Shown here piece after piece: positions 12,055 to 46,366 of a stretch of DNA of 64,000 bases; position 1 is the first letter of the stretch, and every line of letters starts with the position of its first letter. The position numbers were made by a program, and so were the translations under genes. This DNA comes from an uncultured Candidatus Saccharibacteria bacterium. Its GTDB lineage: Bacteria > Patescibacteriota > CPR2 > UBA1875 > CAIMLA01. The stretch spans positions 8,416 through 72,415 of the forward strand of contig CAZEFH010000002.1 in NCBI GenBank assembly GCA_964511435.1, in the 5' to 3' direction. A model generated the notes under the pieces. It did no database searches. It was given only the letters and a program-made list of their open reading frames with translations, and had not been told where the DNA came from.

Positions 12055-13434
12055 CTATCCATAAAGTCGTTCCCGAATAAGGCCTATTTCATGTCTCAAA
12101 ACCTCATTGTCCTGGATTTCTCTATCAATTTTGTCACATGAATGAATCGCAGTAGTGTGGTCTTTTTTTCCGAGTTCACGAGCAATTTTGGGATATGAGA
12201 GCTGAAGCTCTTCTCGCATTAAATACATTGCGATTTGGCGAGGAAGCACAATCTCTTTATCTCTCTTTGTGCCAAGTATTTCATTTACAGAGAGATCATA
12301 GAAGTTGGCAACCTTTTCCACTATTTGTCTGGCGGTGAAGCCGCGCCTACGGGCATTTGAGATAAGGTTTGAGAGAATTGATTTAGTTACATCCAGGGTT
12401 GGCTGTCCACCATTAAGTTCACAGTATGCCAGGATACGATTAAGAGCCCCTTCAAGTTCACGGATATTATTCTGGATATTACGAGCGATGTAATCAAGAA
12501 CTTCTAAGGGCACAACATAGCCCCGAAGTTGACTTTTGCGCTGCAAGATAGCAATTCTCGTTTCTAGGTCTGGCGGCTGAATGTCTACCATTAAACCCCA
12601 TTCGAAACGAGAACGGAGGCGCTCCTCTAGAGTTGGGATTGCTTTTGGAGGACGGTCGCTCGCGAGAATGATTTGCTTATTTGCTTGATGGAGAGCATTA
12701 AAGGTGTGAAAGAATTCCTCCTGAGTTTGCTCCTTATTAGCGAGGAATTGCAGGTCATCAACAATCAAAACGTCTGCTTTACGATATTTATCTTTAAAAC
12801 CGCCGGTTTTTTTCTCTGTAATCGAAGAAATAAAGTCGTTTGTAAATTTCTCGCTGGTGACATAGACAATGTTTTTCTTAGCGTCTCGGTTACGGATGGC
12901 ATTACCAACCGCTTGCATTAGATGGGTCTTCCCCAGTCCAACTCCGCCATAGATGAAGAGTGGGTTGTATTTTGTTCCTGGATTTTCGGCGACACTCTGA
13001 CAAGCGGCAAACGCAAGCTTGTTTGAAGTTCCGACGACGAAAGTATCTAGGGTATAGCGCGGATTCATCCCGCTAGCAGTACCGCCATCACTACTTACCG
13101 CCGGGGCAGTAGGTTTAATATGAATAGTGTCGTCAGTCGTGACAGCTACTGGTTCTACCTTTTCGTTTAATTTTTCGATAGTTTTTGCTGAGCCAACCCG
13201 ATATTCTATTTTTGAGACTTGGGGCGCAGCATGTTTTATGGCTTCGAGTATCTGGGGGTGATATTTCTTTTCTAGCCACTCTTTAGTGAAAACATTTGGG
13301 ACGCTTACCAGAACAACTTCACCATCAATAGACGCAATCTGAGTGTTTTTGAACCAGGTCGTAAAGTTTGCCTTTGACAGGGAAACTTCGAGTTCACCCA
13401 GAACTGATTTCCAGATTGCATCTTTTTCCATCAT
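12055..13434 (-). CDS. dnaA: Chromosomal replication initiator protein DnaA
   Basis: AAA+ Walker A (GGVGLGKTHL), Walker B (LIVDDLQF) and the C-terminal DnaA-box-binding signature (HTTAIHSCDKI) are present. Confidence 0.95.
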   Translation of the reverse strand: MMEKDAIWKSVLGELEVSLSKANFTTWFKNTQIASIDGEVVLVSVPNVFTKEWLEKKYHPQILEAIKHAAPQVSKIEYRVGSAKTIEKLNEKVEPVAVTTDDTIHIKPTAPAVSSDGGTASGMNPRYTLDTFVVGTSNKLAFAACQSVAENPGTKYNPLFIYGGVGLGKTHLMQAVGNAIRNRDAKKNIVYVTSEKFTNDFISSITEKKTGGFKDKYRKADVLIVDDLQFLANKEQTQEEFFHTFNALHQANKQIILASDRPPKAIPTLEERLRSRFEWGLMVDIQPPDLETRIAILQRKSQLRGYVVPLEVLDYIARNIQNNIRELEGALNRILAYCELNGGQPTLDVTKSILSNLISNARRRGFTARQIVEKVANFYDLSVNEILGTKRDKEIVLPRQIAMYLMREELQLSYPKIARELGKKDHTTAIHSCDKIDREIQDNEVLRHEIGLIRERLYG

Positions 13435-13606
13435 TGCCTCGTGCCGGTTACTTATAGTGCAGTAACGGCTTTATTTGCCCAACATTGCTCAAAACGAGTG
13501 TAAAGTAAGTTCATTATAGTACATAAAAAAGTTTTCCACAACCCCCATATGTTATCCACATTTTGGGGGATAATAAGCACAAAATGATTGAGCAGGGTGG
13601 CGGTCC
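13435..13606. promoter_or_regulatory. dnaA upstream region with DnaA boxes (a second box cluster, autoregulation)
   Basis: TTATCCACA lies at 13552..13560 and TTTTCCACA at 13532..13540. Confidence 0.5.
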
Positions 13607-14488
13607 GTGCTAAGATATAAGCTGCTAAAGATAAGGTATATTATGAGTCTATTTGACACTATTCTAGTTCAGCCCTTCGTAAACATATTGGTATTCTTTT
13701 ATAGCATCATTCCTTTTCATGATTTTGGCCTGGCAATCATCCTTCTTACTGTACTTATCCGAGCAATACTTTGGCCAATTCAAGCAAAGATGATGAAAAA
13801 CCAGAAGGCGCTAAACGAGCTGCAGCCAGAAATAAAGAAGATCTCTGAGAAGTACAAGAATGATCCACAGAAACTTCAGGCGATGACCCTTGAGCTTTAT
13901 AAGGAGAAGGAAGTGAATCCGCTGTCTTCTTGTCTGCCGTCTCTGATACAATTCCCGATTATGATTGCACTTTACTACGCTATCATTAAATTTAGCGAGC
14001 CAGCATTTATCAATCTTGTTAAGAGTGATGCGGGTATTTGGCACTATCTTTATGGCTGGATGCATAACTTAGGCTTCGTGAAAGACGCTCTTAGCGGCAG
14101 TTTCAATACTACTTTCCTTGGCTTCTTTGATCTCGCAAATAAGGCGGTAGTTTCGTTTAGTCCAATCAAGATAAACAAGGAGATTGTCTTTGCCCTTGTT
14201 GCAGCTGGAGCCCAGTATCTACAGATGAAACAAATGATGCCAAAGCAGCAGGACAACAATCAGAGCGCCCAGACACTAGGCATGATGACCATCATGATGC
14301 CACTGATGATTCTTTATATCGGCCTTATCTGGCCAGCCGCTCTGCCACTTTACTGGGCTGTGACCACAGGGGTTGCATATTTGCAGCAGTGGCTTGCGAT
14401 GCGTGGCGATGTCGCTAGTCTCGACAAGGAAGCCATTATTGAAGTCGAGGCAGAGGAAAAGAAAGTTACTCCCAAAAGGAAGAAATAA
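13607..14488 (+). CDS. yidC: Membrane protein insertase YidC/Oxa1 family (short Gram-positive type)
   Basis: Conserved core motifs are present (LTVLIRAILWPI..K, SSCLP.LIQFPIMIALYYAI). The start may instead be the ATG at 13643. Confidence 0.85.
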   Translation: MLRYKLLKIRYIMSLFDTILVQPFVNILVFFYSIIPFHDFGLAIILLTVLIRAILWPIQAKMMKNQKALNELQPEIKKISEKYKNDPQKLQAMTLELYKEKEVNPLSSCLPSLIQFPIMIALYYAIIKFSEPAFINLVKSDAGIWHYLYGWMHNLGFVKDALSGSFNTTFLGFFDLANKAVVSFSPIKINKEIVFALVAAGAQYLQMKQMMPKQQDNNQSAQTLGMMTIMMPLMILYIGLIWPAALPLYWAVTTGVAYLQQWLAMRGDVASLDKEAIIEVEAEEKKVTPKRKK

Positions 14489-14943
14489 TGTCAGTTGGAC
14501 ACGCAGAAATCAAAAAAGTTGAGACCATCGTTGCTGATATGTTGCGCTGGATGCGCGTGTCGCTTTCCCCAAATGTTAGCGCTGATACGGATGGGATAAA
14601 GGTAGATCTTGCAGGGAATGATAGCGCCATAATGATTGGTTTCCATGGAGAGACACTAGCAGACTTTACTTACCTCGTTGGGATTATCGTGAAGAATGAA
14701 CTAGGAGAAAATATCCAAGTTCGTATCGATACGGGAGGCTATTTGGCTGGGCGCGATCGTAGGACCAAAGATCTGGCTAGAAAAGCGATTGAAAAAGTGA
14801 AGACCAGCGGCTTCCCAGAAACAATCACAGGCCTGAATTCATATGAGCGCAGGCTAGTACATGCCGAAGCGAATAAAGAGGGCCTTGTTAGCGAGTCGAC
14901 TGGTACTGGAAGAGACCGCAAGATTGTAATTAAGCCAATCTAA
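14488..14943 (+). CDS. jag: Jag/KhpB-like RNA-binding protein (KH + R3H domains)
   Basis: A C-terminal R3H-like segment (YERRLVHAEA...TGTGRDRKIVIKP) is present. The gene sits directly after yidC. Confidence 0.75.
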   Translation: MSVGHAEIKKVETIVADMLRWMRVSLSPNVSADTDGIKVDLAGNDSAIMIGFHGETLADFTYLVGIIVKNELGENIQVRIDTGGYLAGRDRRTKDLARKAIEKVKTSGFPETITGLNSYERRLVHAEANKEGLVSESTGTGRDRKIVIKPI

Positions 14944-16842: not shown

Positions 16843-17715
16843 ATGTCAATAAAAGTCCGTAAAGCCGTTATCCCAGCTGCTGGTTTTGGAACCCGGTTTT
16901 TGCCAGCCACTAAGTCAATGCCGAAGGAAATGTTACCAATTATCGATCGTCCAGCGATTCACTATGCTGTAGAAGAGGCTGTCAGAGCAGGGATTACCGA
17001 CATTATTTTTATCACAGGGCGTGGTAAGAATGCAATCGAAGACTATTTTGATCACTCATATGAGCTAGAACATACTCTAGAGCTTCGTGGTAAGACCGAG
17101 GTCTTAAAGGAAGTACAGCAGGTCTCAGATATGGCGAACATTGTATATATCAGACAGAAGGAGCCCCTTGGACTTGGGCACGCAGTTTTACGTGCAAAGG
17201 ACCTTGTAGGTGACGAGCCCTTCGCCGTGATTCTGCCTGATGATTTTCTATATGGAGAAAAGCCCACTATTGGCGAAATGGTGCGCGTCTTTGAAGAGAC
17301 TGGCAAATCAGTAATACTGACTGAAGAAGTCCCGGAAGAAAGAGTTAGTTCTTATGGGGTGGTTGAGCCCGAATCTGGTACTGATGGTGAATATTTTAAC
17401 TTAAAAGGAATTGTCGAAAAGCCAGATATTAAAGAGGCTCCATCCAACCACGCAGTAGTCGGACGCTATGTGCTGAAACCAGAAATATTTAATTACCTAG
17501 AAAATACAAAGCCAGGTAAGGGAAACGAAATCCAGCTTACAGACGCCATTATTGAACTAATTAAAGACGATGGCATGGTGAGTTATAAAATGCAAAATGA
17601 GCACTATGACACTGGTGATAAACTGGGCTTTTTAAAGGCCACTGTCTGTATGGCTCTTAAGCACGAAAAGCTGAACGGGGAATTCAAAAAGTTCCTACAC
17701 TCTATCGGGAAATAG
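16843..17715 (+). CDS. galU: UTP-glucose-1-phosphate uridylyltransferase
   Basis: The N-terminus is KAVIPAAGFGTRFLPATK..PKEMLPI.D.P..Y.V.EA..AGI. Confidence 0.85.
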   Translation: MSIKVRKAVIPAAGFGTRFLPATKSMPKEMLPIIDRPAIHYAVEEAVRAGITDIIFITGRGKNAIEDYFDHSYELEHTLELRGKTEVLKEVQQVSDMANIVYIRQKEPLGLGHAVLRAKDLVGDEPFAVILPDDFLYGEKPTIGEMVRVFEETGKSVILTEEVPEERVSSYGVVEPESGTDGEYFNLKGIVEKPDIKEAPSNHAVVGRYVLKPEIFNYLENTKPGKGNEIQLTDAIIELIKDDGMVSYKMQNEHYDTGDKLGFLKATVCMALKHEKLNGEFKKFLHSIGK

Positions 17716-17859: not shown

Positions 17860-18327
17860 ATGGTCTTAATGGTGACAGTTGTTTTCGTTGTATGGTATAT
17901 TTTGTCAGCTAATAAGTTTTCAAAGGAATTAATAACAGCATCTGATGGCATCAAAACGTCAGAAAGCGATAGTTATACCGAGAAAAAACCGACAACAAAT
18001 ATTAATGTCGACACCTCAAAGAATACCACCGAAGTACCGGTTTCAACTGAAGTTAAGCTGATTATTGACCAATTGAGTGAAGACAATGGTTCAGTTCTGT
18101 ATAGGGCGACTGTTACGAACCCAGGCGAGAGCGGAACCTGTAGCGCTGAATTTACAAATCCAAACTCTAAGCCCGTGACTAAGGTTACAGATGCCACGGG
18201 TGGTATCTGTGGTCCGGTTTCATTATCAGTAAATGAGTTTGATAGTCTTGGAAGTTGGACTCTAACTCTCAGGTATTATACTGGGGATACTCAGGCGGTA
18301 GCGACTAAAACATTACAGATTAATTAA
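17860..18327 (+). CDS. Hypothetical secreted or membrane-anchored protein
   Basis: An N-terminal TM segment is present. The ORF may extend upstream with a non-canonical start. An extended -10 (TGGTATAAT) lies at 17771..17779. Confidence 0.4.
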   Translation: MVLMVTVVFVVWYILSANKFSKELITASDGIKTSESDSYTEKKPTTNINVDTSKNTTEVPVSTEVKLIIDQLSEDNGSVLYRATVTNPGESGTCSAEFTNPNSKPVTKVTDATGGICGPVSLSVNEFDSLGSWTLTLRYYTGDTQAVATKTLQIN

Positions 18328-20541
18328 ATGAAATCAAACATGGAACTTAGTAAATATAAGTTATTTATTATTGGAATAACCACAGCCCTTACAATTATCG
18401 GTGCAAATTTTTTCGTGTCTCCAAATAAGACAGTTGCCATCAGTGGGAGTGATTGGTTAGCGGGGAATATTATTGCTGACACATTATTTTATAATGGCAG
18501 TTCGATGACTACAGCTCAGGTTCAGGCGTTTTTGATGACGAAAGTGTCCAACTGTGATACAAATGGTACTCAACCGGCAGCAGAATATGGGCGTTCAGAT
18601 ATTACTCACGCCCAGTATGCAGCACTTAATGGATGGTCGGCACCTCCGTATTATTGTCTAACAACTTATCGACAAGTTCCCCGCGCTGACACCGTAATCA
18701 ATAGTTATAATGCTAGTAGCGTTTCTTTGGATAGCCAGGGTGCACTGACAGCGGCTCAAATTATTCAAAAGGCAGCCTCAACTTATGGGATTAGTTCGGA
18801 AGCGCTGATTGCTACATTGCAAAAAGAATCACCCGGACCTCTTGTAACAGACACTTGGCCTCTCTCTTCACAGTATCGAAACGCCATGGGTTATGGTTGC
18901 CCAGATGGAGCACCATGTGATCCTACCTTTGAAGGCTTTTATAATCAGGTTATGAATGCAGCAAAACAGTTTAAAAAGTATAAAGATAGCCCAGAATTAT
19001 TTAGGTATAAGTCTGGCCAAAACAACACAATTCTTTACAATCCAGATACCAGCTGTGGTAGTTCGAGCGTATATGTCCAGAATAATGCTACAGCTGGGCT
19101 GTATAACTATACTCCATACCAGCCAAATGCCGCTGCTCTTGCAAATCTTTACGGCACAGGGGATTACTGCAGTGCTTATGGAAACAGAAATTTTTGGCGA
19201 ATATATAACGACTGGTTTGATCAAGTTCAAATTATCGCTAACTCTCTTTCTTTCCCATATCTTTTCACTTCTGACGCAACCCCGGCAGTTGGTCAAGATG
19301 TAACAGCTGACTTTGATATCTATAACAATACCGATACAGATATCATTCTGGATTCTGTTGGTTATATAGGAAGAGCTTCAAATGGTAATAATCGTGATTT
19401 TGGTTGGCGTGGTCCTGTGACCGTTCCAGCCAAGGATAAATACGTCTTCTCGTCAACCTTAAGGGTAAAGGACGTTGGAACGGTTTCTATTACACCTGCA
19501 TTCAACTATCGGGGATCATTCTATCTATATAATGACAAAAAGACAGTACTCACAACTCACTTCCCAAACATTACAGTAACAACCCCAATTTCAATGACAC
19601 CTACAAGTGCGATTGCTGGTCAACAAGTGACCTTGGCGGCCACTGTTACTAACAATGAGGATCATACCATCAACTATGATAACCTTGGTTTTGGTGTGCG
19701 TCTTGGTACAAAAAACTATGATACTGGTTGGGCTGGATCTGGCTCAATTGCTGCTAGCGCCACGAAAAATCTTTCAGGGAAAGTTATGCCAGCGCAGTCA
19801 GGGACTCTCAGTGTTTGGGTAGGGAATTATTTTTCTGGGGAATGGGGCACTTTTGCTGGTTCTAATAAGTCATTTAATATAAATCCATTTCGACAAAGTT
19901 ACCTCTCTTTCCCATATCTTTTCACTTCTGACGCAACCCCGGCAGTTGGTCAAGATGTAACAGCTGACTTTGATATCTATAACAATACCGATACAGATAT
20001 CATTCTGGATTCTGTTGGTTATATAGGAAGAGCTTCAAATGGTAATAATCGTGATTTTGGTTGGCGTGGTCCTGTGACCGTTCCAGCCAAGGATAAATAC
20101 GTCTTCTCGTCAACCTTAAGGGTAAAGGACGTTGGAACGGTTTCTATTACACCTGCATTCAACTATCGGGGATCATTCTATCTATATAATGACAAAAAGA
20201 CAGTACTCACAACTCACTTCCCAAACATTACAGTAACAACCCCAATTTCAATGACACCTACAAGTGCGATTGCTGGTCAACAAGTGACCTTGGCGGCCAC
20301 TGTTACTAACAATGAGGATCATACCATCAACTATGATAACCTTGGTTTTGGTGTGCGTCTTGGTACAAAAAACTATGATACTGGTTGGGCTGGATCTGGC
20401 TCAATTGCTGCTAGCGCCACGAAAAATCTTTCAGGGAAAGTTATGCCAGCGCAGTCAGGGACTCTCAGTGTTTGGGTAGGGATGCTCCAAACATCATACT
20501 GGTTAAGCCTTTCTAATAAAGTATTGTTTACTGTACAATAA
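18328..20541 (+). CDS. Large secreted protein of unknown function containing a perfect internal tandem duplication (two 219-aa repeats)
   Basis: It has a signal/TM N-terminus. Residues from SFPYLFTSDATPAVGQD to TLSVWVG occur twice with identical DNA. Confidence 0.5.
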   Translation: MKSNMELSKYKLFIIGITTALTIIGANFFVSPNKTVAISGSDWLAGNIIADTLFYNGSSMTTAQVQAFLMTKVSNCDTNGTQPAAEYGRSDITHAQYAALNGWSAPPYYCLTTYRQVPRADTVINSYNASSVSLDSQGALTAAQIIQKAASTYGISSEALIATLQKESPGPLVTDTWPLSSQYRNAMGYGCPDGAPCDPTFEGFYNQVMNAAKQFKKYKDSPELFRYKSGQNNTILYNPDTSCGSSSVYVQNNATAGLYNYTPYQPNAAALANLYGTGDYCSAYGNRNFWRIYNDWFDQVQIIANSLSFPYLFTSDATPAVGQDVTADFDIYNNTDTDIILDSVGYIGRASNGNNRDFGWRGPVTVPAKDKYVFSSTLRVKDVGTVSITPAFNYRGSFYLYNDKKTVLTTHFPNITVTTPISMTPTSAIAGQQVTLAATVTNNEDHTINYDNLGFGVRLGTKNYDTGWAGSGSIAASATKNLSGKVMPAQSGTLSVWVGNYFSGEWGTFAGSNKSFNINPFRQSYLSFPYLFTSDATPAVGQDVTADFDIYNNTDTDIILDSVGYIGRASNGNNRDFGWRGPVTVPAKDKYVFSSTLRVKDVGTVSITPAFNYRGSFYLYNDKKTVLTTHFPNITVTTPISMTPTSAIAGQQVTLAATVTNNEDHTINYDNLGFGVRLGTKNYDTGWAGSGSIAASATKNLSGKVMPAQSGTLSVWVGMLQTSYWLSLSNKVLFTVQ
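19251..20482 (+). repeat. Direct tandem repeat with a 657-bp period; about 575 bp of each copy is identical (19251..19825 and 19908..20482)
   Basis: A string comparison of the two copies was made. The period is a multiple of 3 (219 codons). Confidence 0.85.
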
Positions 20542-29286: not shown

Positions 29287-30328
29287 TATAGTTGTAACTG
29301 GTGGTGACGGAGGATATGGCAATCTTGGAGACGAAGCTCTCCTTGAATCTGTAAAAGAGTTTTACCATCAATATCTAGAAAAATTTAATGTCATTATTTT
29401 AATGGCAAACACGCCCTTAACACAGAATGATGGTTTTGTTTATGTAAAAGATGATATAGAATCTTGGGAAAAGGCAAATATTAATACCAAAGATATTAAG
29501 CTAGTTCATTATTATGGCGGTGGCTATTTGAATAAGTATTGGTTTGAAGAAAAAATATGGCTCTATCGATATCTATGTGAACAAGGACTTTCTTCCAAAA
29601 AAGTTGTTTTTACCGGTCAAGGCTTGGGACCGTTTAATGAGAAACAAATGACTGAGATAGGGGATATTGCTAAAAATTCAGCTGTTTTTGCGATGAGGGA
29701 CAATGCATTTCAATCCCCAAAAACAAGTTTTTCTTTTGATGAAACAATCTCGCGCTTTAGTCTATGGAGATTATACCCCAGAAGAAGAAAATATATTAAT
29801 GTTCATTTTAGGCCAGGTGAAGCATACTCTGAAACTGAAGAAAAAGATATTATTTCAAAGACGAACTTAATTACCAAGTTTGCTAATAAGCGGGGCCTAA
29901 AAGTTCGTATTTTTACAATGTTATATCAAGAGAAAGAGCGTCTCGAAAAGATTTTGAGAGGGGTGGAAGGTATAGAAATCTGGGATAGGCCAATAAATTT
30001 TTCAGAGTTGACTAGTTTTCTTGGTAGGGGCTATATAAATATTTCCCAAAGTTACCATGGTGTGTTGGCTTCATTATATTCAGGAACACCAGTTATTGGT
30101 ATATACAGCAACGACTATTATCAAAGTAAGTACCAGGGTCTAAAAGACATACTTGTGTCAGATTTATTTACTATGGCGCCCATAGATAAAATAGAAGAAA
30201 CAAATATTCTAGAATTATTGAAACGTAATTCATTTAAAAATAAATTAATACGTTGTTTACGGCTAAATAATCTAAAAAAACAAAATCACGACGTCTACAA
30301 AAAAATTAGGAGTATATTAAATGGTTAA
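29273..30328 (+). CDS. Polysaccharide pyruvyl transferase-like protein (CsaB/WcaK family); call is tentative
   Basis: The N-terminus (IVVTGGDGGYGNLGDEALL) resembles the pyruvyl-transferase glycine-rich motif. Confidence 0.4.
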   Translation: MKKASIVVTGGDGGYGNLGDEALLESVKEFYHQYLEKFNVIILMANTPLTQNDGFVYVKDDIESWEKANINTKDIKLVHYYGGGYLNKYWFEEKIWLYRYLCEQGLSSKKVVFTGQGLGPFNEKQMTEIGDIAKNSAVFAMRDNAFQSPKTSFSFDETISRFSLWRLYPRRRKYINVHFRPGEAYSETEEKDIISKTNLITKFANKRGLKVRIFTMLYQEKERLEKILRGVEGIEIWDRPINFSELTSFLGRGYINISQSYHGVLASLYSGTPVIGIYSNDYYQSKYQGLKDILVSDLFTMAPIDKIEETNILELLKRNSFKNKLIRCLRLNNLKKQNHDVYKKIRSILNG

Positions 30329-33245
30329 AAAGCCAAAAATTAGCGTTATTATTCCTTGCTATAATCAGGGTCAATATGCTTTTGATGCAGTGAGATCTGT
30401 TTTTGCACAAACGAGAAATGATTTTGAAATAATTATTGTTAATGATGGTTCTAATGACGATCATACAGACAAATTGCTGCAAGAAATTAGCAAAAAACAC
30501 CCCGATGTTATGGTTTTTAATAAGAGAAATGGTGGACTTTCTGATGCCAGAAATTATGGTATCGGTAAAGCCCGAGGTGACTACATCGTCTGTCTTGACA
30601 GCGACGATGCTCTTAGACCAACCTACCTAGAGAAAACAGCTAAGATACTTGACGGCGACAAGGACCAAAGGATTGGATTTGTATCAACTTGGATACAGGA
30701 GTTTGGTCTCCGTTCAGAAGTATGGCGACCAAAGGTGGAGAATAAAACCGATATTCTGTTAACAAATCATTTCATAGCTGGGTCAATGTTCCGCAAAAGT
30801 TCTTGGGAACAAGTCGGGGGTTATAAGAAAGAAATGATTGGCGGCTACGAAGACTGGGAATTTTGGCTTAGTATTGTTGAAAGCGGTAAGGATTGGAGGA
30901 TAATCGAGGAGCCTCTATTCTTGTACCGAATTAGGCATAATTCTATGCTTCAAAATGCAACAGAAAAACACAAGCAGCTCTACGAATTACTCATTAAATT
31001 TCATAAAAAGTTATTTTCTGATCAAAGTAATGAAATAATTGCGGATTATGCAGCACTCAACCAAAAGCTTAGAACGGATCTTTCAGACGCATATTCAAAA
31101 ACATCTCAAGTCACAAGCGATTACTACAGTGTAAATGAGGAATTGATTCAATTAAAAATGTCTCGCGTTACTCGTTACGTCATTAAACTTAGAGATAATC
31201 TGGTTGATCTACGAACGGCAGTACACGATCGAATAGCGAAAACTAAAAAGGGTACCAGGTCGCAGATCAGTAGGTTAATTCCCGCAAAAATTAAATCAAA
31301 TATTTCAAGTTTTAAAAACGCTCTTTTGGGAATTCGATACACAACTATTGAAAATCAAGCTATCCAAAGCGGTCTCCCTTTAGTGTCGATCATTACTCCA
31401 TTTTATAATCATGGTGCAACTATCCTTGAAACTGTCGATAGTGTTTTGGGACAAAGTTACCAAAACTTCGAATACATTATTGTAAATGATGGGTCAAATC
31501 CAGAAAATACTGCTATACTCTCGAAAATAAAGGATAGTCGGATAAAGATAATCACACACCACAAAAACCTTGGGAATGGCAGCCCAGCGACGGCACGTAA
31601 TACCGGCATCAAGGAATCTTGGGGGCGTTACGTTCTCTGTTTGGATGCCGATGATAAACTTGATAAAACATTTTTAGAAAAGGCACTGGTTTTGCTTGAA
31701 ACAACACCTGGGGTTGCTGTTGTAACTACTGATACAAGTATGTTTGGTGCAGTAGAGCGTGTACTGGAATACGCTGATTATAACCCAGCCGAACTAATTA
31801 AAAACAATATAGTTATTACAGCTGCTGTTTATCGTAAAGAAGCCTGGGAAGCCGTAGGAGGCTATAAATCAGAGATTGGCTATGAAGACTGGGAGTTTTG
31901 GATTGCGTTAGCAGAAAAGGGTTATTTTGGTAAAAAGATTGCTGAAAAACTATTTTTTTACAGAACTGCAGACACATCACGTTATCAGGAGGACGTAAAG
32001 AACCATAGTCAAAATCTAGAAAAAATTAATCAGCTACATCCGTCTTTTTACTCAAATATTGAGTACTATCTGAAAAAATTTCAGAAAAATAAGCAAATCG
32101 TGATACCAGGCACAGCTTTCATAAACCTAAGGAGCAACAGTGATTATCTGAAAAATGATCAGCGGAAAAAGGTCGTAGTGGCAGTTCCTTGGCTTACTTA
32201 TGGAGGAGCAGAAACACTTTTATACAACTTCTGTAGAGGGTTGTCGGCCGAATACGATTTTACATTTATTACTGGCTATAAGTCAGATAATGAGTGGGAA
32301 TATCGTTTCAGAGAGTTTAGTGACTCCATCTATCATTTGCCAAATATTTTGGAACATGAGCAACTACAGTTAGAGTTTATTTCAAACTATATTTCTACTA
32401 GGAATGTAGAGATTTTTCATGTTTTTCACTGTCAATATCCACTTACTATGCTATCTGAATTAAAAAAGCGCCATCCAGGTCTAAAAATTATTGTGACAAT
32501 GTTTAATTCTAGTGTAGATTTTTTCTGGCAATCCCTTGAGTTAGGTGACTACGTCGATGTTTATACTAGCGATAATACTACGGTTACAGATATTGTTAGC
32601 GCTAGGTTGCCCCATAAAATAGTTATACCGATTTTGAATGGGATAGATGTTTATGGAGATTATTCTCCAGATAGCTATGATCGGAACGTAACAAGGGAAT
32701 CATTGGGTGTTACCAAGGATGATAAAGTAATATGTTTTGTGGGGCGACTATCTGAAGAAAAGAACGTTTCAGCCGTTGTAAAACTAGCCGATGCCATAAA
32801 AAACATTCCTAATACGAGGGTGATTATCGTAGGAGATGGTCCAGAGAAAAAGCGGGTGTTGGCTGCAGTGAGAAGAAATAATAAAGTACTATATCTTGGA
32901 TATAGGGATGATGTGGCAGCAATATTATCTGCTAGCGATATATTTTTCTTACCATCTCATGTCGAAGGTTTCCCCCAAACACTAGTCGAGGCCATGGCTC
33001 TCGGTAATGTTTTAGTGACTTCTACGGCAGGAGAGATGAAAAAAATAGTCGATGATAGTATAGGCAGAACATTCGATTCAAAAAATATTGGTCACGCAAT
33101 AGAGATTATTAAAGACTTATTATTACAGGACAAAGGACTTTTTGACATGCAGAGAAATGCTGTCGCTAAAGCGCGTAAATATTATTCATACAGTCGAATG
33201 ATTGATGATTATGATTGTCTTTACGGGGATCTAGGGAGAAAATAA
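30321..33245 (+). CDS. Three-domain glycosyltransferase (GT2 - coiled-coil linker - GT2 - GT4)
   Basis: Two ISVIIPCYN / VSIITPFYN GT2 modules are present, each with a DxD motif (CLDSDD and CLDADD). A C-terminal GT4 domain (FVGRLSEEKN, EGFPQTLVEAMALG) follows. Confidence 0.75.
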   Translation: MVKKPKISVIIPCYNQGQYAFDAVRSVFAQTRNDFEIIIVNDGSNDDHTDKLLQEISKKHPDVMVFNKRNGGLSDARNYGIGKARGDYIVCLDSDDALRPTYLEKTAKILDGDKDQRIGFVSTWIQEFGLRSEVWRPKVENKTDILLTNHFIAGSMFRKSSWEQVGGYKKEMIGGYEDWEFWLSIVESGKDWRIIEEPLFLYRIRHNSMLQNATEKHKQLYELLIKFHKKLFSDQSNEIIADYAALNQKLRTDLSDAYSKTSQVTSDYYSVNEELIQLKMSRVTRYVIKLRDNLVDLRTAVHDRIAKTKKGTRSQISRLIPAKIKSNISSFKNALLGIRYTTIENQAIQSGLPLVSIITPFYNHGATILETVDSVLGQSYQNFEYIIVNDGSNPENTAILSKIKDSRIKIITHHKNLGNGSPATARNTGIKESWGRYVLCLDADDKLDKTFLEKALVLLETTPGVAVVTTDTSMFGAVERVLEYADYNPAELIKNNIVITAAVYRKEAWEAVGGYKSEIGYEDWEFWIALAEKGYFGKKIAEKLFFYRTADTSRYQEDVKNHSQNLEKINQLHPSFYSNIEYYLKKFQKNKQIVIPGTAFINLRSNSDYLKNDQRKKVVVAVPWLTYGGAETLLYNFCRGLSAEYDFTFITGYKSDNEWEYRFREFSDSIYHLPNILEHEQLQLEFISNYISTRNVEIFHVFHCQYPLTMLSELKKRHPGLKIIVTMFNSSVDFFWQSLELGDYVDVYTSDNTTVTDIVSARLPHKIVIPILNGIDVYGDYSPDSYDRNVTRESLGVTKDDKVICFVGRLSEEKNVSAVVKLADAIKNIPNTRVIIVGDGPEKKRVLAAVRRNNKVLYLGYRDDVAAILSASDIFFLPSHVEGFPQTLVEAMALGNVLVTSTAGEMKKIVDDSIGRTFDSKNIGHAIEIIKDLLLQDKGLFDMQRNAVAKARKYYSYSRMIDDYDCLYGDLGRK

Positions 33246-42640: not shown

Positions 42641-42766
42641 GTGCTTTCCCCTCTCAGTCAGACCCTACCTCGGTAGGGCATTATCTATGAGCAGAACACG
42701 ATATATTATAACAAGTTGGCCAATAAATCAATAGTTTTAAAGCCCGGTCCAATGAATATACTAGAA

Positions 42767-42802
42767 TAAACATTACGACATTCTTGCGAATGTCGTAATG
42801 TA
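42767..42802. promoter_or_regulatory. Palindromic operator-like element (ACATTACGACATTC, 4-nt spacer, GAATGTCGTAATGT) in the divergent region between the high-GC operon and the ArsR-like gene
   Basis: It has perfect 14-bp inverted arms. The same element occurs, reverse-complemented, at 43119..43156. Confidence 0.6.
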
Positions 42803-43091: not shown

Positions 43092-43118
43092 AAGTAAGTA
43101 GATTCGTGTTTTGTAGTA

Positions 43119-43156
43119 TAAACATTACGACATTCGCAAGAATGTCGTAATGTTTA
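43119..43156. promoter_or_regulatory. Second copy of the palindromic operator (TAAACATTACGACATTC GCAA GAATGTCGTAATGTTTA, 17-bp arms) in the promoter region of the large lipase-like gene
   Basis: A perfect 38-bp palindrome that is the exact reverse complement of the upstream copy. Confidence 0.6.
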
Positions 43157-43213: not shown

Positions 43214-46200
43214 GTGGCTTCCATGGGTAAAAATTCAGCTGTGATTTCTTGGTTTGAATCAATCATTAACCAGGAAAATTATTGGAGAAGTGTATTTTAT
43301 GCAGGGCTTACAGTTATAGTGAGTCTTTTTTTGTATTTACCGCAAAAGACATTTGCAGCGGAGTGGGTGAGCATGGGTTTCGAAGATACACAGGTCAGAT
43401 CATATGTAGTTGATCGATATGATAAACAACATATCGTTGTAAATCTCTCGTCTACAAAAAATGGTTTCTATAATTATTATACAAAAGATGGGGGAGATAC
43501 GTGGCAACCAATCCAAGGGGCAAATAGCATATGTGATACGGCGATTCAAAATCGAGGTAATAAGCTGGAGTTTTGGCTTGGTTGTATGGATGGACTGAAA
43601 AGATCAATTGATGGTAGTGATACTTTTCAGACGGTGGTAAATTATGGTAATAACATTGTTTATAATATGTCTTCCTCGGACGATGGAACGCTATATTTTT
43701 CGGCTGCGAATTCTGTCTATAGAGTAAGAGACAGCCTGATTATCGAAAAAACCAACCTGCCAAACACAAGTAGCTCTATCGCGTACATTTCTGTAAACCC
43801 GATTAACAGCAGTGAAGCGTATATTTCCAAAACTGGAACCGGACCAGGAATATACAAGACAAGCGATGCCGGGGGTAATTGGGCTCAAGTTTCTGCGATG
43901 GCGCAGTTTAATAGTGGAATTAATGGTTTATATTTTCTTGGTGACGGTAACCTGTGCATTACGGCCAGCCCCGGTGGTGTTAGTTTTTCGTCAAATGGTG
44001 GCTTTACGTGGAGCAATCTAAAAACACCTGATCCGAGCGGTCAATATGAATCTAATCGTCTGTATTCTGGTGGTCAAAATCCTGATGTTTTGGCAAATGT
44101 GATAATTACCAACTTTACCTTGGCGAATGTAACCCCTAGAATTTACTCTCAGACTGGGGCCAGTACTCTCGATACCGTGGTTTCTCCACTCACATTTAGT
44201 GCTGTCTACCCGGCTGTGTCTCAAGGAGTGACGTTTGTAGTAGGGCGTATTGGGACAAATGGTATTTGGAGAAATGACGGGATAGCTATTCAGCCAGAAT
44301 ATCTCAAGAAGCGACCGGTAATAATTATTCCGGGAATAATGGGGAGCTGGGGTAAAAGTTTTAGTAAAGAGTTGTTTTTAGACCCAATTTTTCACACATA
44401 CGACTCGCTAATCAATTCTTTAGTCGAAAATGGTTTGAGGGAGGATGTGGACTATTTTACATTCCCGTATAACTGGATGCAGGACAACCATCAGTCTGCA
44501 ATTCAACTTAAATATTTTATAGATAAAATCAAAATTAATACTGGCGCTGATAAGGTAAATATTGTTGCTCATAGTATGGGTGGTATAGTTACTCGGGATT
44601 ACGCAGAATCAAGTAATTATGAAAATGATATAGATAAAATAATATTTTTAGGGACGCCTCATTTAGGTAGTCCATCATCATATATTACATGGGAGTCTGG
44701 AAAGGTTGTTTTTGGTAGTGATTTGCTTACAAATGAATTAACAAATTATTTATTTGCTGAAATGGCAAAACAGTTTGGTTATAATAGTCTATTTGACTTT
44801 ATCCGTCACAAAGTCGTATCTGTGGGGCAGCTATTGCCTATTTATGATTATTTGGCAACGAGTTCTGGTGTTTTATTATACCCAAACGGTTACCCTCGAA
44901 ATAACTACTTGGAAAGACTTGATGTAAATAACAATTTACTAATTAGTTTAGGGATTCACGTGACCAACATCATAACGCAAGATATCGAAACCATTAATGG
45001 GTACAAAGTAAGTAATGATGAAGGATCTGATGGCCATTGGGAATTTGGGTTCCCGGAACTCCCAATGATTGGGTTTGGAGATGGTGTTGTTCCAAATAAT
45101 AGCTCAACATTCATCGCAAGCCAAAAACAGGTAATACTGAATGGTGTTGGCCATCGTGAAATAGCCACTAGTGCAACAAGAGAGGTCTTGGTCGCACTTG
45201 GTATAAATGATCCTAAGACTGTAATTGAGGAAACTATAGAAAAGTACTTAATAATTAAGGCATATTCCCCAGTAGACTTTTATGTTATTGCGCCAGATGG
45301 TTTGAAAATTGGCTATAACAAAAATGGAGGAATATTTAACGAAATTACTGACGCCTTTTACTCTGGAGCAGACAGTGCAGCAGAATTTGTTACAATTCCG
45401 AGTCCTCCAGATGGTGAATACCGGATAGTTACGCTGGGTAACTCCTCGGGTTCATATAAGATTGAATCAAGCTATATCGATGATCAGCTGAACAAAGGAT
45501 CTACGACAAGTTACGAGGGTGTCACCAAGGTGGGGTCTGAACAAACCGTCATAACAAATCTCTCTAAAGCAGATTTTGAGACAGAAACAGAAATAGATGA
45601 TCATATTGCACCAGTTACCACTGCATCCATTGATCAATCAGAAATCGAATACAATAAAGGCCCGCTAACAGTTACTCTTTCTGCAACCGATAACGTAAGT
45701 GGTTTAAAGGTAACTCAATATAGTTATGATGGTAGTAATTGGAATGATTACGTCGATCCAGTAACAATCTCTGAAAATGGTACGAACACATTACATTACC
45801 GTTCAGAAGATAATGCCGGCAACGTGGAAGAAACAAAGACACTGGTGGTGAAAATTGATTATACTCCGCCAATGATTACGCTCACAACAGACAAATCAAG
45901 TTATACAAGATATGATAAAGTAAGTCTAAGTTGTGAGGTAATTGATGTATTTTCACAAGTAAAAACCGTTAATCTAGAATTAGATGGAAATCAGATTCAG
46001 TGTAGTAATCAAGAAATTGATGTCTCGAGATTGGCGCTCGGTAGTCATACACTTCACATTGTCGCGACTGATGTAGTTGGGAATGTGGCGGAACAGACCG
46101 TACATTTTAATATAATCGGAACTTCTACTTCATTATTGCTCGACATCAATTCACTGTACTTTGGCAAACAGATTAGTCGAATGCAATACTATCAATACAA

Positions 46201-46366
46201 CGCGCTCTTATCAGTCTATGAATTGATGTCTAGACTAGGCCTGGGAAAACCTGCGAACTCAATTTTGGATGCGTGGTTAAAAATTATTGATAAAGACAAA
46301 AAACTTAAGTTTATTACTGATTACGCGTATAATTTACTTAAAGAGGATATGTTATGGCTAAAGTAA
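43214..46366 (+). CDS. Large secreted alpha/beta-hydrolase (lipase/esterase, PGAP1/DUF676-like) with C-terminal Ig-like / OmpL47-type beta-sandwich repeats
   Basis: It has a signal/TM N-terminus. The nucleophile elbow is VAHSMGG (GxSxG). C-terminal NVSGLKV..YSYDGSNW...HYRSEDNAGNVE repeats are typical of chitobiase-type Ig-like domains. Confidence 0.6.
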   Translation: MASMGKNSAVISWFESIINQENYWRSVFYAGLTVIVSLFLYLPQKTFAAEWVSMGFEDTQVRSYVVDRYDKQHIVVNLSSTKNGFYNYYTKDGGDTWQPIQGANSICDTAIQNRGNKLEFWLGCMDGLKRSIDGSDTFQTVVNYGNNIVYNMSSSDDGTLYFSAANSVYRVRDSLIIEKTNLPNTSSSIAYISVNPINSSEAYISKTGTGPGIYKTSDAGGNWAQVSAMAQFNSGINGLYFLGDGNLCITASPGGVSFSSNGGFTWSNLKTPDPSGQYESNRLYSGGQNPDVLANVIITNFTLANVTPRIYSQTGASTLDTVVSPLTFSAVYPAVSQGVTFVVGRIGTNGIWRNDGIAIQPEYLKKRPVIIIPGIMGSWGKSFSKELFLDPIFHTYDSLINSLVENGLREDVDYFTFPYNWMQDNHQSAIQLKYFIDKIKINTGADKVNIVAHSMGGIVTRDYAESSNYENDIDKIIFLGTPHLGSPSSYITWESGKVVFGSDLLTNELTNYLFAEMAKQFGYNSLFDFIRHKVVSVGQLLPIYDYLATSSGVLLYPNGYPRNNYLERLDVNNNLLISLGIHVTNIITQDIETINGYKVSNDEGSDGHWEFGFPELPMIGFGDGVVPNNSSTFIASQKQVILNGVGHREIATSATREVLVALGINDPKTVIEETIEKYLIIKAYSPVDFYVIAPDGLKIGYNKNGGIFNEITDAFYSGADSAAEFVTIPSPPDGEYRIVTLGNSSGSYKIESSYIDDQLNKGSTTSYEGVTKVGSEQTVITNLSKADFETETEIDDHIAPVTTASIDQSEIEYNKGPLTVTLSATDNVSGLKVTQYSYDGSNWNDYVDPVTISENGTNTLHYRSEDNAGNVEETKTLVVKIDYTPPMITLTTDKSSYTRYDKVSLSCEVIDVFSQVKTVNLELDGNQIQCSNQEIDVSRLALGSHTLHIVATDVVGNVAEQTVHFNIIGTSTSLLLDINSLYFGKQISRMQYYQYNALLSVYELMSRLGLGKPANSILDAWLKIIDKDKKLKFITDYAYNLLKEDMLWLK

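Follow-up and report, generated by a model that had tools for sequence, protein, structure and literature searches.

An exact 577-bp direct repeat within the gene of a putatively secreted lysozyme-fold protein from a Saccharibacteria-like bacterium

It is a general phenomenon in bacteria that paralogous repeats, in tandem or within one gene, evolve in concert through gene conversion, and the homogenisation of repeats by recombination is nothing unusual in repetitive surface proteins of bacteria. GH73 endo-beta-N-acetylglucosaminidases and related lysozyme-fold cell-wall hydrolases, which are close systems to the protein described here, include LytB of S. pneumoniae (7pj3), the C. perfringens autolysin (5wqw), the Atl glucosaminidase (6fxo) and phage tail-tip lysins. 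Very little is known about surface-protein variation in Saccharibacteria-like episymbionts. The Periscope Proteins are surface proteins whose long tandem repeats are almost identical in DNA sequence, such as SasG/Aap (G5-E), Rib/alpha C, Sgo_0707 (SHIRT), Esp and CdrA (Whelan et al. 2021, PMC8201768). They have a signal peptide and an anchor in the wall or membrane, and their array serves as a stalk on which the N-terminal domain is projected. Their high DNA identity has been proposed to allow intragenic recombination with gain and loss of repeats, and variation in length between strains is their defining property (PMC8201768).

We analysed a single stretch of DNA of 64 kb (the window) and observed a long direct repeat inside one ORF (Table 1). 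An offset scan found the two copies to be the same letter for letter, as a single unbroken run of 577 bp at an offset of 657 bp, or 219 codons, with both copies in frame. This pair was recovered by a repeat search and was the sole long repeat in the window, while Tandem Repeats Finder, whose longest period of 500 lies below the 657-bp spacing, gave no match. The flanks of the copies matched each other at 28-35%, which is the random level, and given these flanks an identity of 577 bp cannot be due to chance. The spacer was wholly different from the tail taken together with the sequence downstream of it, the sequence before copy 1 differed from that before copy 2, and in gapped DNA comparisons neither the spacer (L) against the tail (T) nor the end of the upstream flank (X) against the end of the spacer showed similarity above shuffled controls. 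The first-pass annotation had described a perfect 657-bp tandem duplication with copies starting at 19251 and 19908; the exact direct repeat is present, but it covers only 577 bp of the 657-bp period and the left end had been placed 2 bp short. The protein entry P0001 corresponds to the product of this ORF with a start four codons later.

Table 1. Features of the repeat-bearing gene and its upstream neighbour, numbered from the first letter of the window.
Feature	Position	Strand	Length or residues	Description
Upstream gene	17860..18327	+	155 aa	N-terminal hydrophobic segment, probably a small beta-sandwich; stop at 18327, next ATG at 18328
Repeat-bearing ORF	18328..20541	+	737 aa (stop included)	Predicted secreted lysozyme-fold protein with four predicted C-terminal beta-sandwich domains
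N-terminal hydrophobic segment	18328..18444	+	aa 1-39	Putative signal peptide or signal anchor, from sequence and alignment; cleavage presumed
N-domain	18445..19245	+	aa 40-306	Lysozyme-like fold; invariant residues across 50 homologs
Repeat copy 1	19249..19825	+	577 bp	Domain A, aa 308-412 (nt 19249-19563); core of domain B, aa 413-499 (nt 19564-19824); 1 nt
Spacer L, unrepeated	19826..19905	+	80 bp, ~aa 500-526	Last two beta-strands of first B domain and linker to next A domain
Repeat copy 2	19906..20482	+	577 bp	Identical to copy 1; domain A, aa 527-631; core of domain B, aa 632-718; 1 nt
Tail T, unrepeated	20483..20541	+	59 bp, ~aa 719-737 and stop	Last two beta-strands of second B domain

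The repeat does not coincide with whole domains. Two identical 190-aa domains had been proposed for this protein, a description that we replace, as each copy consists of 192 codons and 1 nt and holds one complete beta-sandwich domain (A) with about 80% of a second (B). An AF2 model of aa 300-737 (pLDDT 92) contained four sandwiches; the repeat begins at the start of domain A and its identity ends within a beta-strand of domain B, two strands before the end of that domain (model residues 200/201 and 419/420). In this model the spacer and the tail each supplied the final two strands of a B domain, a prediction of high confidence. Spacer and tail were assigned to the tails of B1 and B2 solely by their position in the alignment and the model, and scoring them against B1 and B2 tail profiles was uninformative, these tails being too short. 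Secretion of the product is plausible from its sequence, as the N-terminal hydrophobic segment is followed by an A-x-A-like site conserved in homologs (KTVA/ISGSDW in the query, aligned with the A-x-A/LSGSDF consensus, the slash marking the site) and the N-domain has conserved cysteines. Residues invariant in the N-domain across 50 homologs included the Glu of LQKE(S/Q), the Asp of CPD and several Cys. The product is best explained as a secreted or envelope-associated protein with a GH73-like N-terminal domain and two two-domain units (A-B, A-B).

The upstream gene and the repeat-bearing ORF likely form one operon. A homolog of the upstream gene was observed at the same position in the homologous locus L002 (35% identity, E 4e-17), and genes similar in size were found at this position in L001 and L004. 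The conserved neighbourhood of the family comprises GalU, a small anchored protein, the repeat-bearing gene and a membrane glycosyltransferase-like protein. Almost all members of the family come from Saccharibacteria, and a few copies occur in Actinobacteria, the phylum of known Saccharibacteria hosts. Searches of PDB sequences, NCBIfam and Pfam gave no usable family for the whole protein, its Pfam matches being weak and to beta-sandwich domains only (A2M, PA14, DUF4352), and the literature found on Saccharibacteria in connection with peptidoglycan hydrolases or with gene conversion had no title or abstract concerned with this protein family. The query is an outlier, with its best homolog 46% identical and no closer relative among 5.8 billion proteins. 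It was observed as one cluster member on one contig, and a search for close relatives in metagenome contigs returned a single match at 34%. Its assignment to Saccharibacteria is based on gene order and on the organisms from which the homologs come.

Thirty-two of the 61 homologs with A/B domains had the layout A1-B1-A2-B2, and the query aligned colinearly with 21 homologs of this layout. Within these 21 proteins A1 and A2 were 45% identical and B1 and B2 49% identical, against 57-69% for the same position between homologs, which indicates that the two units are old paralogs in those homologs. Across distant homologs the number of array domains ranged from 2 to 5 and the order of domains also varied.

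Our preferred explanation for the repeat, which we consider on balance probable, is that unit 1 recently replaced unit 2 through intragenic gene conversion or another form of recombination. Two A-B units, diverged or partly diverged, would already have been present before the event, and intragenic homologous recombination would have transferred 577 bp from unit 1 onto the matching part of unit 2, either as gene conversion or as a comparable non-reciprocal replacement involving sister chromosomes. This tract would run from the first codon of domain A to a point in domain B two beta-strands short of its end, and since it would stop there, the earlier spacer and C-terminal tail would have remained as they were. 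A mosaic pattern was indeed observed, with no differences over 577 bp, abrupt edges and flanks at the random level. Uniform mutation following a tandem duplication is incompatible with no differences in 577 bp beside about 55 in 80 bp. A very recent simple duplication, as proposed from a first reading of the sequence, should have left 657 identical bases, while the identity run is 577 bp and is followed by 80 bp at random-level similarity; nor does the start of the spacer equal the start of the tail, or the end of the spacer that of the upstream sequence, one of which a tandem duplication predicts. The sharing of the two-unit, four-domain layout with 32 distant homologs likewise speaks against such a duplication.

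Judged by their indels, HMM scores and pairwise scores, both query copies are unit-1-like in character. In the alignment both were without the 3-aa insertion of A2 and the 4-aa insertion of B2. Unit-1 and unit-2 HMMs scored 84.7 and 68.4 bits, respectively, for domain A and 82.4 and 63.7 bits for the core of domain B, and for each domain the pairwise scores favoured unit 1 in 19 of the 21 comparisons. This preference of 16-19 bits was weak compared with the 44-72 bits of true unit-1 domains in leave-one-out tests, and could simply stem from a lineage that branched early or from an older duplication specific to the lineage. Invasion of the RecA type would be hard if the old unit 2 had differed from unit 1 as much as the two units of the homologs do, at roughly 45-49% amino acid identity. 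Conversion needs pre-existing DNA homology, and the model thus requires earlier rounds of homogenisation (concerted evolution) that are themselves only assumed. We infer RecA-type conversion as the mechanism, unit 1 over unit 2 as the direction, and the recency of the event in real cells as opposed to an exaggeration by the assembler.

Comparable repeats were observed in other members of the family, with exact internal repeats of at least 110 aa in 7 of 120 homolog proteins. L002 carried an exact repeat of 541 bp, the left flank of which matched at about 70% over the adjacent ~55 bp (by eye) and 45% over 150 bp (computed) before a jump to 100%, and L001 carried one of 387 bp starting inside a domain. 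In L004, the contig name of which suggests a long-read assembly, a repeat of about 721 bp had 2 mismatches, while the Agromyces isolate L077 had a 621-bp tandem unit with 1 mismatch and L003 a tandem case with 332 of 333 bp identical. One possibility raised in the first-pass annotation was a locus of active recombination or expansion, with variation of a surface protein; the recombination part of this reading is favoured by the mosaic pattern, the unit-1-like copies and the similar events across the family.

It is possible, though we think it unlikely, that the exact identity arose in the assembly. An assembler or polisher may have merged small differences between similar units through bubble popping or multi-mapped polishing, or a loop in the assembly graph, passed through a fixed number of times, may have produced a wrong number of 657-bp units. 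The exact 577-bp repeat exceeds short reads and most insert sizes, the query protein is known from a single contig, and the assembly is the sole source of both the exact identity and the copy number. The comparable exact repeats in homologs also came mostly from short-read metagenome contigs (a SPAdes NODE contig for L002, and k141 contigs), and the tandem case of L003 resembles a simple loop. However, near-identical repeats were also present in L077, which is a cultured isolate, and in L004, and the window held no other long repeats. De Bruijn assemblers do not merge copies that have diverged below about 97%. The short spacer limits the scope of any artefact, as single 150-bp reads should span repeat, spacer and repeat across its 80 bp, which would imply at least two copies in some genome. 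More generally, for exact intragenic repeats of 0.4-0.6 kb in metagenome-assembled genomes, copy number and micro-divergence are not to be trusted without long reads.

A lineage-specific origin, which we regard as improbable, would start from an ancestral single A-B unit into which a second copy and 80 bp of unrelated filler were recently inserted in an illegitimate event, with no older unit 2 overwritten. Both copies being unit-1-like would fit such an origin, as would the lack of DNA similarity between spacer and tail and the existence of homologs of 524-644 aa that have just two or three beta-sandwich domains. The spacer does not behave as filler, however: it is in frame, in the alignment it falls on the tail of B1 and the linker in the homologs (e.g. 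SFNIN against YFNIQ), and it forms the last two strands of a B domain in the confident part of the model. The total length and the order of parts are those of the 32 four-domain homologs, and the junctions expected from a tandem duplication were, as described above, not observed at either end of the spacer.

Programmed variation, in which domain units would be exchanged very frequently by a mechanism of a cassette-like or site-specific kind so as to alter binding specificity, is very improbable: the recurrent domain replacement and duplication in the family and its varied domain orders are what speaks for it, but no silent cassettes or other donor copies of the unit and no inverted repeats were found in the 64-kb window, no recombinase was found among the ORFs scanned with Pfam around the gene (a subset of those in the window), and no recognisable motif was found at the repeat edges. 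A weak sub-threshold XerD-like NCBIfam match fell on a membrane protein. A diversity-generating retroelement was set aside on general grounds, since such elements typically have much shorter repeats with differences at adenines, against 577 identical bp here.

If the repeat is real, it would mark a site prone to instability and recombination in what is probably a cell-wall-active surface protein of a Saccharibacteria-like episymbiont. The 577-bp direct repeat may serve as a substrate for in-frame loss or gain of the 657-bp (219-codon) unit, where loss would yield a 518-aa two-domain form and gain would yield longer forms, as in the variable-length 'Periscope' surface proteins. A wider proposal, which we regard as improbable, is that the family represents a fast-evolving host-interface enzyme with a binding or spacer array repeatedly rebuilt by intragenic recombination (domain replacement, duplication and loss). 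If true, epibionts would gain a Periscope-like tuning of reach or specificity towards host cell walls, of which the perfect repeat would be a snapshot. The picture at the level of the family, which has a GH73-like fold, a conserved neighbourhood and frequent domain reshuffling but no Pfam or NCBIfam model, may be more useful than the single repeat.

Compared with the GH73 enzymes, the N-domain showed the lysozyme-like alpha/beta fold of the GH73 and lysozyme superfamily and, like these enzymes, an invariant Glu at a helix end. We take the context of this residue, in the LQKE motif, to resemble that of the catalytic Glu in GH73 and lysozyme-fold enzymes. The query is also modular as these enzymes are, with C-terminal or flanking binding or spacer domains. 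Unlike in GH73 enzymes, about six conserved cysteines and large insertions were present, only 133 of the 267 N-domain residues aligned, at 16% identity, and sequence searches with the N-domain against Pfam (Glucosaminidase PF01832 or SLT), NCBIfam and PDB gave no match at E <= 0.1 to 1. The N-domain is a candidate peptidoglycan glycosidase.

Foldseek matched the four-domain model to Macroglobulin (MG) or CARDB-type arrays (alpha-2-macroglobulin, complement C3/C5 and bacterial ECAM) with E-values of about 1e-10 to 1e-9, and a weak Pfam A2M match was observed (24.7 bits against a cut-off of 21). The TM-scores were low (0.2-0.3), however, reflecting a generic sandwich fold, and unlike the MG arrays the query has neither a thioester or bait region nor an individually significant Pfam stretch. 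As in concerted evolution, the repeated block was 100% identical with sharp edges and diverged flanks, and the homologs keep their two units distinct. The query differs from gene-conversion cases with a gradient of identity, such as L002, in that its flanks have no measurable residual DNA homology.

The Periscope Proteins differ from the query in several respects. The query has just two copies, parted by a non-identical 80-bp piece, and the edge of its repeat falls inside a domain. Its N-terminal domain resembles a peptidoglycan glycosidase rather than a host-ligand adhesin, and the query comes from a Saccharibacteria-like organism, not from a classical pathogen. The tail, which ends in LFTVQ, showed neither an LPXTG motif nor another anchor at the C-terminus, so the query differs in having no C-terminal wall anchor, while a hydrophobic N-terminus with an A-x-A-like site is present. 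In common with the Periscope Proteins, the query has tandem folded beta-rich domains that are identical at the DNA level (577-bp copies, 100%), preceded by an N-terminal domain of a functional type. The number of array domains also varies, as it does in the Periscope Proteins, though among distant homologs and therefore on a different time scale. As in the G5-E repeats of SasG, the identical domains alternate with a different one (A-B-A-B), such that direct neighbours are dissimilar. We regard the repeat-bearing protein as a probable further case of surface proteins with high-identity repeats, "Periscope"-like in kind.

An offset scan of the window returned 577 identical bases in an unbroken run, offset by 657 bp (219 codons), and a repeat search returned the identical pair as the sole long repeat of the 64-kb window. 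The sequence does contain this exact repeat, and the first-pass annotation had placed it correctly to within 2 bp. Its reading as a perfect 657-bp tandem duplication was wrong in its simple form, as identity is limited to 577 bp and the spacer (L) and gene end (T) are unrelated. Identity dropped immediately on either side of the run, to 35% over 150 bp on the left and 28% on the right (random level), and the layout is therefore X - R - L - R - T, where X is the sequence before copy 1 and R the repeat. Neither L against T with its downstream sequence nor the sequence before copy 1 against L scored above shuffled sequences in gapped local alignment. A tandem duplication with a 657-bp period predicts 657 identical bases, and also that L starts as T starts or ends as X ends, both of which fail. 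Uniform mutation was also rejected, as it cannot yield zero differences in 577 bp beside approximately 55 in 80 bp.

Positions of the repeat-bearing gene, its parts and other features of the window
Feature	Position	Strand	Remarks
dnaA	12055-13434	-	
yidC and jag/KhpB-like R3H gene	within 12055-14943, with dnaA	+	
Sulfatase/LTA-synthase-like gene	within window		
galU	16843-17715		
155-aa anchored protein gene	17860-18327	+	N-terminal hydrophobic segment; weak MG2-like (beta-sandwich) match
Repeat-bearing ORF	18328-20541	+	737 aa; holds both copies
R, repeat, copy 1	19249-19825	+	577 bp
L, spacer	19826-19905	+	80 bp
R, repeat, copy 2	19906-20482	+	577 bp
T, gene end	20483-20541	+	59 bp
DUF6056 membrane protein gene	after repeat-bearing gene		
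Envelope-polysaccharide gene cluster	~20562-40675		directly downstream of repeat-bearing gene
Glycosyltransferase, flippase, epimerase and ABC-2 transporter genes	long run after DUF6056 gene		
974-aa ORF	30321-33245	+	two GT2 and one GT1 glycosyltransferase domains fused; within envelope-polysaccharide cluster
40-nt element, two copies	42762-42801; 43114-43153		88% identical; 352 bp apart; just upstream of ORF 43214-46366

The encoded protein was found in the database as P0001, the same protein with a start 4 codons later and on one NCBI contig only, while the next best homolog among 5.8 billion proteins searched was 46% identical. Its N-terminal hydrophobic segment is read as a signal peptide, since the following KTVA|ISGSDW lines up with the A-x-A|LSGSDF consensus of the homologs. 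The adjoining N-domain (aa 40-306) has a lysozyme fold and is conserved across over 4,000 proteins of the database, where precomputed Pfam annotation showed it attached to diverse C-terminal modules (ChW, ricin-type lectin, B-lectin, CARDB and others); Pfam, NCBIfam and PDB sequence searches with the domain gave no match. Comparison of homologs identified as invariant the Glu of LQKE(S/Q), the Asp of CPD and several cysteines. The N-domain therefore probably represents a new GH73-like family of peptidoglycan glycosidases. Homologs were almost all from Saccharibacteria (TM7) genomes among the matches listed, which makes this group the most likely source of the window. The N-domain, otherwise almost confined to Saccharibacteria, was also observed at approximately 50% identity in the cultured Actinobacteria Agromyces sp. 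NPDC052230 (L077) and Leifsonia sp. EB34 (L066). Actinobacteria are the phylum of known Saccharibacteria hosts, and horizontal transfer between host and epibiont is possible.

Modelling of aa 300-737 with 32 homologs gave four beta-sandwich domains (pLDDT 92), for which Foldseek gave generic matches to macroglobulin-domain arrays. HMMs resolved these into two mutually distantly related types, A and B, in the order A-B-A-B. Each copy of the repeat covers a whole A domain (aa 308-412; 527-631) and the first ~80% of a B domain (aa 413-499; 632-718), with the left edge at the first codon of A and the right edge partway along a beta-strand (model residues 200/201 and 419/420), and the repeated block is therefore not a domain module. 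L and T were each modelled with high confidence as the last two strands of their own B domain, and each B domain is a mosaic, its core identical and its final strands unrelated between the two.

The protein aligned end to end with 21 homologs of 726-759 aa, within which the first and second A domains (A1, A2) were 45% identical and the B domains (B1, B2) 49% identical, while the same domain position was 57-69% identical between different proteins. The two units of these homologs, A1-B1 and A2-B2, are thus old paralogs kept distinct. The A1-B1-A2-B2 layout was present in 32 of the 61 listed homologs with A/B domains, the others having 2 to 5 domains in varied order (e.g. A1-B1-A1-A1, A1-A1-B1-A1, A1-B1-A2), and our protein is classed as A1-B1-A1-B1. 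A2 domains typically carry an insertion of 3 aa and B2 domains one of 4 aa, and both copies in our protein lacked these. Unit-1 profiles scored higher than unit-2 profiles (84.7 vs 68.4 bits for A, 82.4 vs 63.7 bits for the B core), and in pairwise scoring 19 of 21 comparisons per domain came out for unit 1. Genuine unit-1 domains gave differences of 44-72 bits (leave-one-out), the query being a distant outlier, so that the unit-1 preference, as judged from these scores, seems real but modest.

We somewhat favor, as the simplest account, a recent event that homogenised the two old domain pairs of this probably secreted lysozyme-fold protein by copying unit 1 over unit 2. A two-unit gene would have been present beforehand, and a recent non-reciprocal homologous recombination, by gene conversion or by an equivalent sister-chromosome exchange, would have written unit 1 over unit 2. 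Two older pieces would have stayed unchanged, the spacer L (B1 tail with linker) and the C-terminal tail T (B2 tail). Conversion needs DNA homology, and the units of this lineage were therefore probably held similar by earlier rounds (concerted evolution).

An assembly effect, with loop traversal or bubble merging accounting for the number of copies (two or more) and for their perfect identity, is a less likely but serious alternative, because short reads cannot span an exact repeat of 577 bp. However, the spacer is only 80 bp and a single read can cover repeat-spacer-repeat, so that two or more very similar copies are to be expected. Addition of a second unit with filler DNA as a lineage-specific insertion is improbable, since L is in frame, lines up with the tail of B1 and the linker in homologs, and folds in the model as the missing strands. 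A programmed cassette system is very improbable and without support, with donor copies and inverted repeats absent from the 64-kb window and no recombinase among the neighbouring ORFs scanned.

Events comparable to the proposed homogenisation were observed across the family, with exact internal protein repeats of at least 110 aa in 7 of the 120 best homologs. Locus L001 contained a 387-bp exact repeat (offset 663) beginning within an A domain, and L003 a 333-bp tandem unit with one difference. In L002, a SPAdes contig with a 541-bp exact repeat (offset 699), the left flank was by eye ~70% identical in the ~55 bp next to the repeat (by computation, 45% across 150 bp) before identity rose abruptly to 100%, a step that is a classical conversion signature. 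The 815-aa homolog of L004 (2501-4948; ENA ERZ21830300, contig ctg710511l, a name suggesting long-read assembly) carried the whole N-domain in two copies of ~721 bp with 2 mismatches, 1629 bp apart. In several of 80 species-representative loci from GTDB genomes, that of the cultured Agromyces isolate included, the region downstream of the N-domain had exact runs of 200-562 bp, and several further loci had runs of 80-120 bp. The 999-aa Agromyces homolog (L077, 3857-6856) has seven beta-rich repeats of ~103 aa, different in type from A and B, the last four forming a tandem duplication of two domains (621 bp, one mismatch) at its C-terminal end. Within-protein identity between the C-terminal region's two halves formed a continuum, most proteins at 40-53%, then 60%, 74%, 79%, 92% and 97%, which argues that the phenomenon is biological and recurrent and not specific to the assembly of this window. 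More useful than the repeat itself, as by-products, are this uncharacterised family and the frequency with which its domains are reshuffled. Separately, several MAGs labelled uncultured Candidatus Saccharibacteria shared an exact 291-361-bp direct repeat at a spacing of 1423-1428 bp (L051, L052, L058, L059 and L082 at ~1485 and 2913; L080 and L081 at ~1494 and 2917; also L061), located ~1-2.5 kb upstream of their N-domain-family gene and unrelated to the 577-bp repeat.

The window probably spans the chromosomal replication-origin region, as dnaA, yidC and the jag/KhpB-like gene are clustered, and the L004 homolog adjoins jag, yidC and rnpA in the same origin-proximal neighbourhood. The 155-aa gene abuts the repeat-bearing gene, its last base directly preceding that gene's first, and its product, which matched no family model, may be a partner protein. 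A homolog was observed in the same position in L002 (35% identity, E 4e-17), and L001 and L004 have genes of similar size there (186 and 208 aa). The order NTP-transferase, small protein, repeat-bearing-gene homolog and membrane PMT_2/DUF6056 protein was kept in L001 and partly in L003. Each 40-nt element forms a hairpin with a perfect 14-bp stem (ACATTACGACATTC ... GAATGTCGTAATGT) and a 4-nt loop (TTGC or GCAA); these loops are mutual reverse complements, making the second hairpin effectively the first inverted. The hairpins may act as terminators or mark the ends of a small element.

Of the concepts described so far, the Periscope Protein class comes closest, comprising surface proteins with tandem folded domains near-identical in DNA, an identity otherwise avoided in multidomain proteins and proposed to permit intragenic recombination and length variation (PMC8201768). 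Our protein resembles these in repeating folded domains identical in DNA and in having a functional N-terminal domain, and its alternation of two domain types is like that of the SasG G5-E repeats. It differs in having two copies only, separated by a non-identical spacer, a repeat edge that falls within a domain, no recognisable C-terminal anchor, and an enzyme-like rather than adhesin-like head. We would not file the gene as a member of the class; the likeness in working is limited to its now carrying a substrate for loss or gain of units. Without one of its units the protein would be 518 aa long and its array would have two domains, a number also observed in homologs of 524-532 aa.
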